Below are positions 12,933 through 18,806 of a DNA stretch of 64,000 bases, in pieces. The position numbers and the translations under genes are program-made. The notes below the pieces were generated by a model. It made no database searches. It saw only the letters and a list, made by a program, of their open reading frames with translations, and had not been told where the DNA came from. Positions within the stretch are counted from its first letter, which is position 1, and every line of letters starts with the position of its first letter. This stretch comes from an uncultured Chloroflexia bacterium (GTDB taxonomy: Bacteria > Chloroflexota > Anaerolineae > CG2-30-64-16), in NCBI GenBank assembly GCA_963774265.1, contig CAVZDU010000001.1:320001-384000 (forward strand), in the 5' to 3' direction.

Positions 12933-14420
12933 TTGCGCGTTCTCTTCGTCTCCCAGGAAGTCAGCTACGAACCACACGGCATCATGTTCCTGTCGGCCGT
13001 GCTGAAGCAGGCAGGTCATGATGTGGCCCTGACCGTGGCTAGACATCGAGGATCCGGTCGCGTACGCGTTGGAGTATCAGCCCGATATCCTGGGCTACAG
13101 CGTGATGACCGGTTCGCAGCGCGGCTACTTCGACCTGAACCTGCGCATCCGGCAGGCAGTCAATCCGTTGCGCGAGTCGGCAGGCAAGAAACCGGTTTTC
13201 TCGGTCTTCGGTGGGCCGCACCCGACCTTCTTTCCCGAAACGATCAACGAGCCCGGCGTCGACGGCGTCTGCATCGGCGAGGGCGAAGGTGCGATGGTCG
13301 ATCTGGCCAACGCGTTAGCGTCGCGCAACGGCGCATTCAATACCGACATTCCCAATTGGTGGTTCAACGTCGAGGGCGAGATCGTCAAAAATCCGCCGCG
13401 GCCGCTGATCCACGAGTTGTCCGCCTTGCCGCACCCCGATCGCGCGCTGATCTACGAAGGCCCACCCATATCACGGCGAGAGCAAGATCAAGTACTTCAT
13501 GACCTCGCGCGGCTGCCCCTATGCGTGCACTTATTGCTTCAATCACGCCTACTACCAGCTTTACAAGCGGGAGAAACGCGGCTACCAACGGGATGTCGAT
13601 GACCTCATTGCGGAGGTGAACGCTGTTCGCAGCCGATGGCCGCTGGAGCAGGTGGTCTTCATCGATGACCTGATCGATCGTCTACAACGATTGGCTGGAG
13701 GAATTCGCCGAGAAATGGTCCGCCCAGGTCGGGCTGCCTTTCTTCTGCAATGTGCGCGCCGATCTTGCTTGTGCAGTGACCCACACAAGGTGGAGCTGCT
13801 GAAAAAGGCGGGCTGCCGCCACCGTAAGCATGGGTATCGAGGCCGCAAACGATCGCATTCGCGTCGACTTGCTCAAGCGCCGTATGACCCGCGAGGACAT
13901 CGTCGACTGTGGCCGCATGGTTCGCGCGGCCGGCATTCACATTCACGGCAACCAACATTCTGGGCATGCCCAACCAGCACGCTCGAAGAATGATCTGGAC
14001 ACGATGCGGCTCAATGCGGCCAGCGCGGGTCAGCTACGCGCATGGCTGGTCTGTTTCAACCATATCCTGGGACTGAGCTGGGCCAGTACACCGAAGACCA
14101 CCACTTGATGGCCGGCACGCTGGATGACATCGGCGAGGTGGCATGGGATCACTCGATCCTCGTGTTCCCCAGCGACGACGACAGGCGACAACGAGAGCAT
14201 TTACAGCGGCTCTTCGCCTTGGGCGTCGAGTTTCCGTGGCTTGAGGGCCTCATTTGCAGCTTGATCAAGCTGCCGCACAACAAGCCGGTAGATACGCTAT
14301 TCTGGTGGTTCCATAAGCTGCACAAGGGATTTGCGATCTATTTTCGCGTGCTATCCCTTCCGGCCCGGGCCGATCGAGCTGGTTAAGACAGCACTTCACT
14401 TCATGAGAATCAAGTCCTGA
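12933..14420 (+). CDS. B12-binding domain radical SAM protein #1 (several frameshifts)
   Basis: [60 protein letters not shown]. Confidence 0.85.
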
Positions 14421-14470
14421 TTGGCGATTGCAGATTCAGGATTGAAGATTGAAGATTCGGTCTGCAAATC
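14419..14470 (+). repeat. Heptamer tandem repeat (GATTnnn x6) with short complementary tail
   Basis: GATTGGC GATTGCA GATTCAG GATTGAA GATTGAA GATTCGG then TCTGCAAATC. Confidence 0.55.
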
Positions 14471-14485
14471 CACACGGAGGTTCCG

Positions 14486-15925
14486 TTGCGAGTCGTACTT
14501 ATCAATCCCAAGTTCCGACTGCCCATCGACACCCGCACATCGCCGCACCTGGCGCTGGCCTACCTGGGCGCGGTGTCCGAGCGCCGCGGCGACAAGGTGC
14601 GCGTCGTACGACGCGGACGTCGAGGAGCAGCCGCTGGTGGACTTCCTCCACGAATTCAAGCCGCACCTGGTCGGCATCACCACCAACACGCCCCAGGTGA
14701 AGCAGGCGTGGCGCACGGCCGCGGCCATCAAGCAGGAGATGGACATCCCGATCGTCCTGGGCGGCCCGCATCGTCAGCGTCGTCTCCGAAGAGCTGGATT
14801 TCGAGTCGCTGCGCCAGCCGCAGGTCGACCTGGTCGTGCGCGGCGAGGGCGAAGGCCCGTGGATCGAGATCAGCAACATCGTGGACACCTTCCTGCGCGA
14901 CCAACCCGAATTCACCGCCCGGAAGCTGATGGATCCTGAGCCTGGACCTGTTCCGCGACATCGAAGGGCGTCAGCTACAAGACCACCGACGGGCAGCTCC
15001 ACCGCAACCCCGACGCGCCGCCGATCGCGGACCTGGACAGCCTGCCGTGGCCGGCCTATCACCTGTTCAAGATGGAGCGGTACACCAACCTGCAGCCCGC
15101 AACCGACGCGATCGACGGCTCGCGCAGCTTCTCGATCATGACCAGCCGCGGCTGCCCCTATCGCTGCACCTTCTGCTCGCAGAGCATCATGCCGATCAAG
15201 TGGCGCGCCCGCTCGCCGGAGAACGTGATCGAGGAATGGCGCCACCTCGTGCAGCGACCTCGGCGCGCTGGAGATCGGCGTGCTGGACGACAGCGCCAAC
15301 ATCCGCAAGAACCGGCTGCATGCAGCTGGCCGACGCGCTGATCGCCAACAAGCTCAACCACGTGCCGTGGATCTTCGTCAACGGCATCCGCGCCAACCTG
15401 GCCGACTACGACCTGCTGGTGAAGCTGAAGCAGGCCGGCCTGAAGCGCACGGCGTTCGGCGTCGAGACCGGCGACGAGCAGATGATCATCAAGATCGACA
15501 AGCACGTCGACCACGACACCATCCGCCAGGCATTCAAGAACGCCAAAGCCGCGGGCATCGAGACGATCGGCTTCTTCATCATCGGCCTGCCGGGCGACAC
15601 GCGCGAGACGATGCAGAAGACCATCGACTTCGCGATCGAGCTCGACCCGATGATCGCCAACTTCAGCATGATGACCCCCTATCCGGGCACCATCGTCTAC
15701 GAGCAGGTGAAGCAGGCCGGCCGCTTCCTGGTGCAGGATTGGGAGGACTACGTCTTCTTCGACCAGAAGGCGCGCTACGAGATGGGCGATCTGACCGCCG
15801 AGCTGATGGAAGAGATGTACCGCAAGGCCTACCGGCAGTTCTACTGGCGGCCCAAATACGTGCTGCGGGCCATGAGCCGCAAGGACTTCTGGCTCAAGTT
15901 CGGTCGCAATGCGCGCATGGCCTAG
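14486..15925 (+). CDS. B12-binding domain radical SAM protein #2 (several frameshifts)
   Basis: PHLALAYLGAV, VLGGPH, RGEGE, TSRGCPYRCTFCS, FGVETG, GFFIIGLPGDT, TPYPGT. Confidence 0.85.
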
Positions 15926-16019: not shown

Positions 16020-17361
16020 ATGCCCATTCGCAAGATCGTACTCATCCAGCCCCGCCGCGACGGCCGCTTCCTGGGCCGCGGCATCAGCGAGCCATATACT
16101 CTCATGCGCCTGGCCTCTCTCGTCGATCCCCAGATCCCGGTCGAAATCTGGGACGGCGATCTGATGGAACTGCCCGTGCACCAGCTTGGCCCCCAGGACC
16201 TGGTCGGAATCAGCGCAAAGACGGTCATGATCGACCGCGCCAAGGTCGTTGGCCGCGAGGATCCAAAAGCAAGGGTCCACGGTCGTCATGGGCGGCACCC
16301 ACGTCACCCTGGTCCCGGATGAAGTCGAGGCCTGGGCGGATGTGATCGTCGTCGGCGAAGGCTATCGCACCTGGCCGAAGATCATCCGTGATTTCGACCG
16401 CGGCACGCTCCAGAAACGCTATGTGGATGAAGAGTGGGCGCCGTCTGGATTCCGGGCGTGGCTGTGCTGCAAGATCGCGTCCTGCAGCAGGTCGACGAAC
16501 ACCGCAACTACTGGACGCCCTACCTGGAAATCACCCGCGGCTGCCCGCGCAATTGCACCTTCTGCACCGCCGTCCGCGTATCGGGCCAGAAGATGCGCCT
16601 GCGCCCGGTCGACGAGGTCGTCGAGGAGATCGAGCGCCGCAAGCTGCAGCGCTTCTTCCTGACCGATGACAACTTCGGTCTGAATTTCCGGCTCTTCCCG
16701 GAGTACATGGAGCAGCTCTTCCGCGCGCTGGCCAAGCTGCCGCTCAAGGGCTGGACCTGCCAGGCCGAGCAGATGGTCGCAGAGTTCCCCGACATGCTGG
16801 ATCTCGCGCGGGAGGCTCACCTGGACAAGTTCCTCATCGGTTTCGAGTCGATCAACCCGGGCAACCGCAAGGAACTGGGCGGCAAGGGCCGCGGCGATAT
16901 CGACAAGACCCGCCAGGTGATCAAGAAAGTGCACGAACATGGCATCGGCGTTGTGGGCCTGTTTGTGTTCGGCTTCGACAGCGACACCCTGGAGACGTTC
17001 GATGCGGGCTATGATTTCATCCGCTCGTCCGAACTGGACGGCGTCAGTGCAACCGTTCTCACGCCATTTCCGGGCACGGCGCAGCGGGAAACCCTGCTGG
17101 CGGCCGGACGCATCCTCCCGCACGATACGTGGGAGCACTACGACACCAACCATGTCACCTTCCAACCCGCCCAGATGACGGTCGAGCAACTCACGGCGGC
17201 CTACGATCGTCTGTGCCGAGCGCATCTACCACCCGACGCTCATGGCCGGGCGCGGCTGGGGCGCGTTGCGGCGCCATCCCGTGAACAAGATGGGGGCGCG
17301 TCTCTTCTCCAGCTTCAGCACCGACATCGGCTACCGCCGGGAATACAGCCACCGGTTATAG
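16020..17361 (+). CDS. B12-binding domain radical SAM protein #3 (several frameshifts)
   Basis: VMGGTHVTLVPDE, VGEG, TRGCPRNCTFC, DDNF, IGFES, FVFGFDSD, LTPFPGT. Confidence 0.85.
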
Positions 17362-17379
17362 TTAGAAGCGAGTATTATC

Positions 17380-18806
17380 ATGAGAGTATTACTGGCCAGT
17401 CCCGAGTCCGAGGTCTGGACCTCCCGCAAGCATATCCCGCTGGGGCTGGGCTACCTGGCCGCGGTGCTGCGCGAGAACGGGCATCCAGTGGGCATCTACG
17501 ACTGCGGCCATCGAGGACGAGCCGCTGGAGACCGTGGTGCGCCGCGGCGGCTACGAGCTGCTCGGCATCACCGCGGTCACGCCGCTGATCGTCGACGCGT
17601 GGAACATGGCGAAGGAAGGCAAGCGGCTGGGGCTGACCACCGTGCTGGGCGGCCCGCACCTGACGCTGATGCCGGAGGAATCGATCAGCGCCGGAGCATC
17701 CCGAGGTGGACTACGTCATCCAGGGCGAGGCCGAAGAGAGCGTCGTCGAGTTCGTGGATGCCCTGGAAGGCCGGCCGCGCCATGGAGACGGTGCACGGCC
17801 TGTACTGGCGCAAGGAACGGCGAGATGGTCGTCAACGCGCCGTCGCGGCCTGGTCCCGAACCTGGACAGCATCCCCTACCCGGCGCACGACCTGTACAAG
17901 ATCACCCGCTACACCAATCTGCAGCCGCTCACCGATGGGCTGGACACCAAAGCGCGGGCCTACACGATCATGACCAGCCGCGGCTGCCCGTACAAGTGCA
18001 CCTACTGCTCCAAGCCGATCACCGGCGACACCTGGCGGCCCGCTCGGTGGAGAACGTCATCGGCGAGTGGCGCTGGCTGGTGCAGCGACCTGAAGGCCAC
18101 CGAGATCGGCCTGACCGACGACATCTGGAACCTGAAGCTGGATCGGGCCAAGGAGCTGTGCCGGCGCATCGATCGCCGAGGGGCTGAACACCGTGCCCTG
18201 GGTCACCGTCCACGGCATGAAGGTCAACCACGCCGACCCGGAGCTGTTCCAGCTGATGAAGCAGGCCGGCTGCAAGCGCGTCGGCTTCGGCGTGGAGAGC
18301 GGCGACGCAACACATCCTGCGCAACGTGATCAAGAAGAGCCAGACGCTCGACATGGTGCGCAACGCGTTCCGCTGGGCCAAGGAGGCCGGCCTGCAGACG
18401 ATGGGCTTCTTCATCTTCGGCATGCCGCAGGAGACCGAAGAGACGCATGGAGAAGACCATCCAGTTCGCGCTGGAGCTGGACCCCGACCTGGCGAACTTC
18501 ATGCTCGCCACGCCGTATCCCGGCACCGAGATGTACGACGTGATCAAGAAGTACGGCAACATCTTCGCCAACGAGTGGGAGGACTACGCCATCCAGTCGG
18601 ACAAGGCGCGCTTCACCATGCCCGATTACGACCCAGACCTGGTCGTGCGGAAGTGGAAAGAGGCCTATCGGCGCTTCTACCTCTACCGGCCGAAGCGGGT
18701 GTGGCAGAAGGTGTCGAAGAAGAGCTTCTGGACCGAGCTGCCCACGACCCTGGCCAACGCCAAACGGTTCTTCGTGCCCGAGAAGGCGCCGGCGAAGGCC
18801 GCGTAG
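17380..18806 (+). CDS. B12-binding domain radical SAM protein #4 (paralog of #2; several frameshifts)
   Basis: [58 protein letters not shown]. Confidence 0.85.

Follow-up and report, generated by a model that had tools for sequence, protein, structure and literature searches.

What do four consecutive genes for B12-domain radical S-adenosylmethionine (SAM) enzymes act on when no gene for a substrate stands beside them? The question is raised by a stretch of 64,000 nucleotides (nt) from an uncultured Chloroflexia bacterium (GenBank assembly GCA_963774265.1, contig CAVZDU010000001.1, positions 320,001 to 384,000), hereafter the window, which carries such an array of genes, rS1–rS4. A first-pass annotation, made from the letters alone, had read the array as an undescribed multi-step methylation or cyclisation pathway, plausibly for membrane lipids. 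Our analysis shows that the array is a real conserved system of the Chloroflexota, and that a pair of genes lying outside the window, for a family-2 glycosyltransferase (GT2) and a flippase-like membrane protein, is co-distributed with rS2 and lies beside it in five families. This partner link to rS2 is new here. The array consists of the following elements, whose gene limits were taken from alignment to the locus of a genome of the same genus (G002) and from sequence reading:

12933..18806, + strand: the rS1–rS4 array, four consecutive genes (G000:C1:332933-338806, where G000 is the window's genome)
12933..14420, + strand: rS1, B12-domain radical SAM gene, about 491 amino acids (aa) when read through, with 13 one-base insertions and 1 deletion
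14419..14475, + strand: rS1–rS2 spacer, six tandem GATTNNN heptamers with a partial inverted arm (sequence reading)
14486..15989, + strand: rS2, HpnJ-like B12-domain radical SAM gene, about 498 aa, with 7 one-base insertions
16020..17361, + strand: rS3, divergent B12-like-domain radical SAM gene, about 446-453 aa, with 4 one-base insertions
17380..18806, + strand: rS4, HpnJ-like paralogue of rS2, about 471-487 aa, with 9 one-base insertions and 1 deletion

The Radical_SAM core (PF04055, Pfam) was matched in all four window genes and gave 76-78 bits in intact orthologues. The translations of rS1–rS4 contain CxxxCxxC motifs ([24 protein letters not shown] and CPYKCTYC), and rS2 was read as starting at a TTG codon 6 nt 3' of GGAGG. 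The B12-binding domain (PF02310, Pfam cut-off 32.1 bits) scored 44.3 bits in rS1, 33.4 in rS2 and 25.5-26.1 in fragments of rS4, and 59.7, 58.1 and 73.4 bits in the respective intact orthologues. For rS3 it remained at 25.1 bits, below the cut-off, even in an intact orthologue. Thus, of the earlier statement that four consecutive genes combine both features, the four same-strand genes with core and motif were recovered; the B12 domain of rS3 falls short, and none of rS1–rS4 is an open frame in the window.

The motifs described as shared by rS2 and rS4 are present as well, and the two proteins were called close paralogues on their account; their identity is only 42% over 488 columns. In a quick maximum-likelihood tree of 65 sampled B12-type radical-SAM proteins (at most 7 per family at random, midpoint root, support by the Shimodaira–Hasegawa-like approximate likelihood-ratio test only), seven families were resolved, and rS2 and rS4 formed sister clades, each with orthologues from other classes. 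Judged from these comparisons, rS2 and rS4 are paralogues, though not very close ones. The rS2/rS4 pair is the core of the array, and rS1 and rS3 are lineage-specific extras here. A second pair of B12-domain radical-SAM genes was observed in the same genome (G000:C2:549985-552499), on opposite strands and also split over several frames.

Curated family models place the array near several known enzymes and inside none of them. Neither rS1–rS4 nor their orthologues reached any curated NCBIfam cut-off. The best model for rS2 and rS4 was HpnJ (TIGR03471, cut-off 577.6 bits), with 205 bits over nearly the full length of rS2, 197-199 for rS4, 84-85 for rS1 and 72-74 for rS3; a profile search of the whole genome gave no HpnJ match above the cut-off. 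BchE (TIGR02026, cut-off 481.35) was the best model for rS1 (96-111 bits) and the second-best for rS2 (155) and rS4 (179-184), while rS3 matched TIGR04013, BchE and HpnJ at 69-82 bits, all below cut-off. Public annotations give the name BchE to array proteins; all four span only 74-184 bits on that model, and the annotation is a generic transfer. The other models compared were HpnR (TIGR04367, cut-off 650; 41-114 bits), the ladderane-type TIGR04072 (cut-off 360; 63-126 bits for rS1–rS4 orthologues), the methylase model TIGR03975 for ribosomally synthesised and post-translationally modified peptides (RiPPs; cut-off 281.85; 44-115 bits for rS1–rS4, with no match for rS3) and ApyD (NF050148, cut-off 750; 27-139 bits). 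A further B12-type enzyme of related arrays, rSx, which is absent from the window, gave 137, 117 and 202 bits on the last three, ApyD being its best match. No HpnP model was among the matches, and the models for PhpK, BzaD and methylases of methyl-coenzyme M reductase (MCR) were far below threshold for rS1–rS4.

The nearest solved sequences to the array were AprD4 (6fd2), MgmA (9ccb; nearest for rS3), TokK, CysS and TsrM. An AlphaFold2 model of rS2, built from a 9-row alignment (mean predicted local distance difference test score 70.5), gave AprD4, TsrM, MgmA, OxsB, CysS and TokK as top Foldseek matches with template-modelling (TM) scores of 0.51-0.56. MgmA/QCMT, TsrM, TokK, CysS and OxsB share the three-part architecture with the array (Foldseek E 1e-13 to 1e-18) but differ in substrates, at 17-20% identity. 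As a predicted structure, the rS2 fold match indicates class B architecture and nothing beyond it. A complex prediction for rS2 with rS4 gave no answer (score 0.00, mark 0.32), and an ESM Atlas look-up of rS2 led only to generic "putative methyltransferase / B12 radical SAM" clusters. Excerpts of a 2026 review (PMC12931638) describe over 100 groups in the B12 radical-SAM network, the biggest of them unexplored, and state that methylases are not told from other chemistries by sequence. A full-text literature search, supplements aside, gave no paper on the array. Together with the sub-threshold family scores, this bears out the view of an undescribed pathway: rS1–rS4 do not all fall with the enzymes of one characterised pathway.

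The array is widely kept among relatives. Source names of homologues and loci assign the window's genome to the class Anaerolineae of the Chloroflexota. Array DNA was matched in 38 of 41 related genomes, including all 24 of the window's own family, and in a pattern and tblastn scan limited to one genome per species, rS2 had 334 relatives. Reference proteins were mapped onto the loci of the best 80 of these 334 (rS2 70-100% identical), and a one-strand order recurred: SufR-like regulator, MoaA, small iron–sulfur (Fe-S) carrier, RtcB, [rS1], rS2, [rSx], [SPASM], [rS3], rS4, [further B12-type genes], with the bracketed genes optional; the window carries the rS1-rS2-rS3-rS4 form. Of the 71 loci that extend 1.8 kb or more downstream, 68 have another B12-type radical-SAM gene as the next one within 700 nt of rS2, so the tandem arrangement is conserved. 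The 50 loci that reach 7.5 kb or more downstream have 2 to 6 such genes each; rS4 is present in 39 of them, rSx in 36, a SPASM gene in 34 and rS3 in 27. Upstream, among 44 loci with at least 6.5 kb of flank, the SufR-like gene and MoaA were each found in 32, RtcB in 31 and rS1 in 17. Start/stop spacing from rS2 to rS4 is 0-19 nt in Caldilineaceae-type loci, and between genera rS2 and rS4 retain 76-92% aa identity, compared with 74-80% for RtcB.

Several of the larger arrays hold additional genes. The array-type SPASM gene, whose best match is a tungsten-cofactor maturase model at 105 bits, has no orthologue in the window's genome. A second SPASM type occurs downstream of rS4 in 11 loci; this genome encodes it elsewhere, together with an rS1-like B12 enzyme and its neighbour, a conserved protein of 68 aa. 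The latter, to which no family was assigned, stands beside the distinct rS1-like B12-domain radical-SAM gene in six loci (L069, L075, L085, L088, L095, L098) and at G000:C5:153407-155054, and may be a partner or substrate protein of the rS1-like enzyme. A search for small open reading frames (ORFs) in the 80 loci returned only the Fe-S carrier, the 68-aa protein and frames through promoter or repeat DNA; arrays of the rS1–rS4 type have no conserved small ORF inside them, and the 68-aa protein is not found in that type. Class I methyltransferases beside rS2/rS4 in G065 and G089 were considered as a paralogous module and rejected, the SAM motif alone being common. More broadly, 5659 cluster representatives are similar to rS2 at E <= 1e-30, and a cluster look-up of ten distant relatives gave no useful names. 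Seven proteins of 1000-2633 aa (P0123, P0129, P0138, P0148, P0169, P0177, P0264) contain two to six rS2-like stretches each; these could be fused B12 radical-SAM arrays or gene-calling artefacts.

The first-pass annotation saw no gene for a substrate and no precursor peptide, transporter, polyketide synthase or nonribosomal peptide synthetase adjoining the array. Within the window this holds, and the clue lies outside it. The order rS2, GT2 gene, gene for a flippase-like membrane protein is found in three genomes that belong to another class (G065, G077, G089), with stop/start overlaps along this run in G089; MurQ, a GH3 hydrolase and GNATs are encoded near rS2-GT2 in G065. The flippase-like protein scored 80-83 bits on TIGR00374 (cut-off 43.2) and 35-37 bits on HpnL. 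The rS2 and GT2 genes lie within 3 kb of each other on one strand in five families (G029, G034, G040, G042 and G065/G077/G089), the operon of G029 reading rS2-GNAT-DUF3795-GT2-flippase-like-rS4-DUF2889-HD. The flippase-like gene adjoins GT2 in all 8 loci examined. The genome of the window has orthologues of GT2 (63-69% identical) and of the flippase-like gene at C1:780928-784799, in the order x398-GT2-flippase-like-HD, where x398 is a 398-aa protein for which a PDB search gave no match.

The distribution of GT2 follows that of rS2 closely. In a sample of the phylum, rS2 orthologues of at least 55% identity occur in 8 of 201 genomes (G000, G042, G052, G055, G065, G077, G089, G101), and a GT2 of at least 63% identity was found in the same 8 and in none of the 193 others; rS2 paralogues of only 33-37% were present in three more genomes, and GT2 homologues of 42-45% in three different ones. 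Among the 41 relatives, GT2 of at least 62% identity occurs in 31; rS2 of at least 53% is present in 30 of these and in none of the 10 without GT2. The one exception is G015, where a contig starts within the array. RtcB, taken as a control, was found in 36 of the 41, including 7 of the 10 system-free genomes, and was not found in the system-bearing G030; in G029, G034, G035 and G040 it lies on other contigs. The HD phosphohydrolase was rejected as a specific partner, as it is present in 34 of the 41 relatives, including 8 of the 10 system-free genomes. The nearest solved relative of GT2 is 6yv7 (52.6 bits), a 355-aa family-2 enzyme that we take to be an archaeal membrane mannosyltransferase.

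As the best-supported reading, we suggest a hopanoid-independent pathway, similar to hpnIJKL, that tailors a lipid-linked or envelope sugar; in our estimate the chances for and against it are evenly balanced. GT2 would load a sugar onto a membrane carrier or lipid. Then, rS2 and rS4 would carry out 5'-deoxyadenosyl radical chemistry on the loaded sugar, which would either contract its ring to give a carbocycle, the reaction proposed for HpnJ and for calditol synthase (Cds), or be a C-methylation. Accessory enzymes (rS1 and rS3 here; rSx, other types and SPASM enzymes elsewhere) would add further radical steps, after which the flippase-like protein would move the modified sugar product outward, the outcome being a lineage-specific decoration of an envelope glycolipid or glycan. 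The observed facts here are the gene associations; from these we infer the sugar substrate, the lipid carrier and the type of reaction. A more specific version is that hopanoid-free Chloroflexota, by means of a duplicated HpnJ-like pair with exchangeable add-ons, equip an envelope lipid or glycan with a sugar that is carbocyclic (cyclitol-type) or multiply C-alkylated; we regard this version as tentative and rather doubtful.

The basis of the sugar-on-carrier proposal is that a GT2 occurs together with an HpnJ-like B12-domain radical-SAM enzyme and a flippase-like protein, a set that repeats the logic of hpnI, hpnJ and hpnL in the synthesis of bacteriohopanetetrol cyclitol ether. The proposed system differs from HpnI-HpnJ-HpnK-HpnL in that the array has two paralogous radical enzymes and up to four more, in genes that are often unlinked. 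According to excerpts of PMC13459092, contraction of the sugar ring by HpnJ is itself a proposal and has not been demonstrated. The same excerpts describe Cds of Sulfolobus, another radical-SAM enzyme, whose target is the sugar head group of a membrane lipid; Cds is likened to the array by description, not by sequence, and differs in being archaeal and acting on tetraether lipids, whose synthase Tes was not found in G000 (NF045702, cut-off 450; best match MoaA at 72 bits).

A number of points weigh against this proposal. Neither an experiment nor a solved homologue connects rS2 or rS4 with a sugar, and on the HpnJ model they reach one third of the cut-off. AprD4, which among solved entries is closest to rS1 and rS2 in sequence and structure (82.6 bits; Foldseek E 9e-19, TM about 0.55), does act on a sugar, but its identity is about 20%, the array scores 28-126 bits on its model NF033070 against a cut-off of 500, and AprD4 itself binds no cobalamin; excerpts of PMC12931638 describe AprD4 and ArsL as working without cobalamin despite shared sequence space. 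Cobalamin use by rS1–rS4 is likewise a prediction. GT2 gave no match to the HpnI model, and no HpnK-type deacetylase was seen near the GT2 loci examined. The GT2-flippase-like operon of G000 lies about 444 kb from the array, and the two are unlinked in the window's own family (37 kb apart in G012, 130 kb in G024, or on other contigs). The genomes of the co-distribution analysis are related and not independent, and the identity thresholds were picked after the hits were known. The SPASM enzymes and the 68-aa protein of larger arrays would fit a peptide substrate, and the window context of SufR-like regulator, MoaA, Fe-S carrier and RtcB is silent on sugars.

The broken reading frames raise a separate question, namely whether the array works in this organism at all. 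When the array is aligned globally, as DNA, with the intact G002 locus (87% identity), its genes show 33 single-base insertions and 2 single-base deletions, and none of the inspected inserted bases lies inside a homopolymer. We conclude that assembly error is the most likely source of these frameshifts and that the cell most likely carries intact copies of the genes. Insertions outnumber deletions in a way that is no natural decay pattern, and the orthologues in many-contig assemblies of the same genus are intact. Without the inserted bases, the aa sequences are 89.4% (rS1), 93.6% (rS2), 91.1% (rS3) and 88.1% (rS4) identical to those of G002, and synonymous codon differences exceed non-synonymous ones about 3:1, as they do in RtcB; this is normal purifying selection, with no non-synonymous excess. 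Furthermore, in public contigs from four small-share sequencing runs (relatives 98-99.5% identical, not the source sample; largest run share at most 9% of words), the extra base is missing at no fewer than 6 of the 33 insertion sites, and the base deleted near 18038 is present; three near-identical contig pieces (1-3 mismatches) each have one gap.

It is unlikely, in our view, that rS1–rS4 of this genome are true pseudogenes of a lost pathway, although some observations favour it. Dense frameshifts are confined to the array, whereas its flanks have 0-1 each (RtcB 1, methionyl-tRNA synthetase 1, MoaA 0, SufR-like gene 0, downstream 385-aa ORF 0). By a six-state codon-phase hidden Markov model, the phase changes 19 times within the array, where the genome median per 6 kb is 6; only 2 of 914 windows reach 19, which is among the highest counts in the genome (an ORF-coverage measure was dropped, being too noisy at the high GC content of this genome). 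Two few-contig assemblies of the same genus likewise have a fragmented array (G001, locus L016; G007, locus L012), and the partner genes at other sites of G000 (GT2, x398, the rS1-like gene and the second-type SPASM gene) are likewise split. Elsewhere in this genome, patches dense in frameshifts disrupt unrelated genes (HypF, HypD, aspartate kinase), which supports assembly error and weakens pathway-specific decay as the cause. The concentration of errors in this array counts against the array being intact.

With regard to the substrate, the array could instead mature a ribosomal peptide or modify a protein (PoyB/C-type C-methylation, SPASM cross-links, or action on MCR as by Mmp10/MgmA), with the substrate gene elsewhere. 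The SPASM genes in 34 of the 50 full arrays and the second SPASM type after rS4, the 68-aa protein beside the rS1-like enzyme, the ApyD match of rSx and the proximity of rS3 to MgmA all point this way. We nevertheless consider it improbable. The window has no precursor, protease or exporter, the rS1–rS4 arrays have no conserved small ORF, and the ApyD and RiPP-methylase scores are below cut-off. These genes are core to the family (24 of 24 genomes) and better conserved than RtcB, unlike typical RiPP clusters, and a peptide or protein substrate leaves the co-distribution of GT2 unaccounted for.

The evidence speaks against the earlier suggestion that the hydrocarbon part of membrane lipids is methylated or cyclised, as by HpnP/HpnR, GrsA/B, Gmm or the ladderane enzymes, and it favours a sugar on a lipid or envelope carrier. 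Class B radical-SAM enzymes do include such lipid modifiers, as excerpts of PMC13459092 describe, stepwise methylation would go well with paralogues that vary in number, and weak matches exist to TIGR04072 (up to 137 bits with rSx) and HpnR; these scores are, however, far under the cut-offs. As with Tes, a squalene-hopene cyclase was not found in G000 (weak SQHop_cyclase_C repeat matches only, best 33.5 bits), no fatty-acid or isoprenoid genes adjoin any of more than 80 loci, and the single specific co-distributed partner is a glycosyltransferase. Hence, a lipid-chain substrate is quite unlikely.

The remaining alternatives involve the genes around the array, which are listed below:

9257..9285, + strand: promoter-like site TTGACA-17-TATGAT with TG before the -10, ahead of the SufR-like gene (consensus scan only)
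9364..10023, + strand: SufR-like ArsR-family helix-turn-helix (HTH) regulator, 219 aa (HTH_20/HTH_5 in orthologue; 62% identity to the G024 orthologue by tblastn)
10020..11036, + strand: MoaA, GTP 3',8-cyclase, 338 aa, intact (orthologue 85% identical)
11046..11417, + strand: A-type Fe-S cluster carrier, IscA/SufA-like, 123 aa (PF01521, 66.5 bits)
11462..12920, + strand: RtcB RNA ligase, one frameshift (single inserted base) near 12236 (PF01139 in orthologue)
18855..18882, + strand: terminator-like hairpin with a 12-pair stem and a T-rich tail, directly after rS4 (consensus scan, best-ranked of 16 sites)

The promoter-like and terminator-like sites, both from pattern scans only, flank the whole stretch from the SufR-like gene to rS4; 2 promoter-like sites were found in the region against 2.3 expected, which makes the one at 9257..9285 weak alone. 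MoaA begins before the SufR-like gene has ended, the stop of one overlapping the start of the other. Transcription of the array may be shared with the SufR-like gene, MoaA, the A-type Fe-S carrier and RtcB; the first three of these (9364-11417) are tightly grouped and may form an Fe-S-status regulon before the radical-SAM block. The SufR-like orthologue scored 74 bits on SufR_cyano (cut-off 178.8). The carrier is kept between MoaA and RtcB in 13 loci, and Caldilineaceae-type loci add Nfu, rhodanese and DUF2203 at its position; an archease partner of RtcB, considered for this gap, was rejected because the gene encodes the A-type carrier. We read the window context as co-regulation of Fe-S-demanding enzymes and not as a pathway common with the molybdenum cofactor (Moco) or RNA repair. 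A Moco link is not indicated since MoaA scores as a regular equivalogue (TIGR02666, 380.9 bits in the orthologue, above the cut-off of 284) and MoaC is located elsewhere in G000.

It is very unlikely that the enzymes modify a cofactor such as a tetrapyrrole, pterin/Moco or quinone. Such a role would be in line with BchE as the first or second NCBIfam match for all four proteins, with MoaA and the SufR-like gene upstream of most arrays, with the Fe-S carriers, Nfu and rhodanese close by, and with the tungsten-cofactor maturase match of the SPASM gene. All these model scores are far below cut-off, though, other classes have array genes away from MoaA, and in several relatives rS2 has its own consensus-type promoter (TTGACA-17-TATAAT, pattern scan). 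Action on RNA together with RtcB, which ends 13 nt before rS1 in the window and is joined in G055 by a CLP1-type polynucleotide kinase adjoining rS2, is extremely improbable, given the occurrence of RtcB in system-free genomes, the lack of a match for it in G030, its location on other contigs in further system-bearing genomes, and a literature search that gave no B12-type radical-SAM enzyme acting on RNA.

Some observations concern the neighbouring sequence. An intact 385-aa ORF directly after the array (window 18918-20075) has no Pfam match and is not conserved there in relatives. RtcB lies in open frames of about 1000 aa in G010, G014, G017, G020, G025, G028 and G037, where the match starts at residue 101, and L030 and others are alike; the RtcB of G024 scored 690 bits on the intein-containing model NF038162. 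Probably, the RtcB of many relatives carries an intein, while the window copy does not. Tandem heptamers followed by their reverse complements, giving long hairpins in intergenic spacers, occur throughout G000 and in L027, L029, L030, L032, L033, L036, L037 and L040. The heptamer of G000 is GATTNNN (24 runs of at least 4 units), and those of relatives differ (for example GGTTGCA, GCGAATA/G, GGTAGAT), so that the repeat hairpins look like a family specific to each species. Short matches of the rS1–rS2 spacer also occur elsewhere. In an Rfam scan of the whole window nothing matched at gathering scores.

Anaerolineae and related groups rank with the most abundant bacteria of sediments, soils and wastewater plants, and to our knowledge their envelope chemistry is almost unexplored. 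That two to six radical-SAM enzymes exceed an RNA ligase in conservation and go along with a glycosyltransferase of their own indicates a core biochemistry of these organisms that is still unexplored. For expression, the compact operon of the G029 type would be the obvious starting point. Even if the proposed action on a sugar is false, the tight co-distribution of rS2, rS4 and GT2 still wants explaining. If it is true, the system would offer a hopanoid-free test of the ring contraction proposed for HpnJ- and Cds-type enzymes, would bring further reactions into the B12 radical-SAM network's largest unexplored part, and would perhaps explain part of the cobalamin and Fe-S demand of these organisms. 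Should the product prove to be a carbocyclic or C-alkylated sugar, this would mean that bacterial radical remodelling of sugars exists independently of hopanoids, and its products could be unrecognised envelope components and biomarkers of a phylum that is very abundant.

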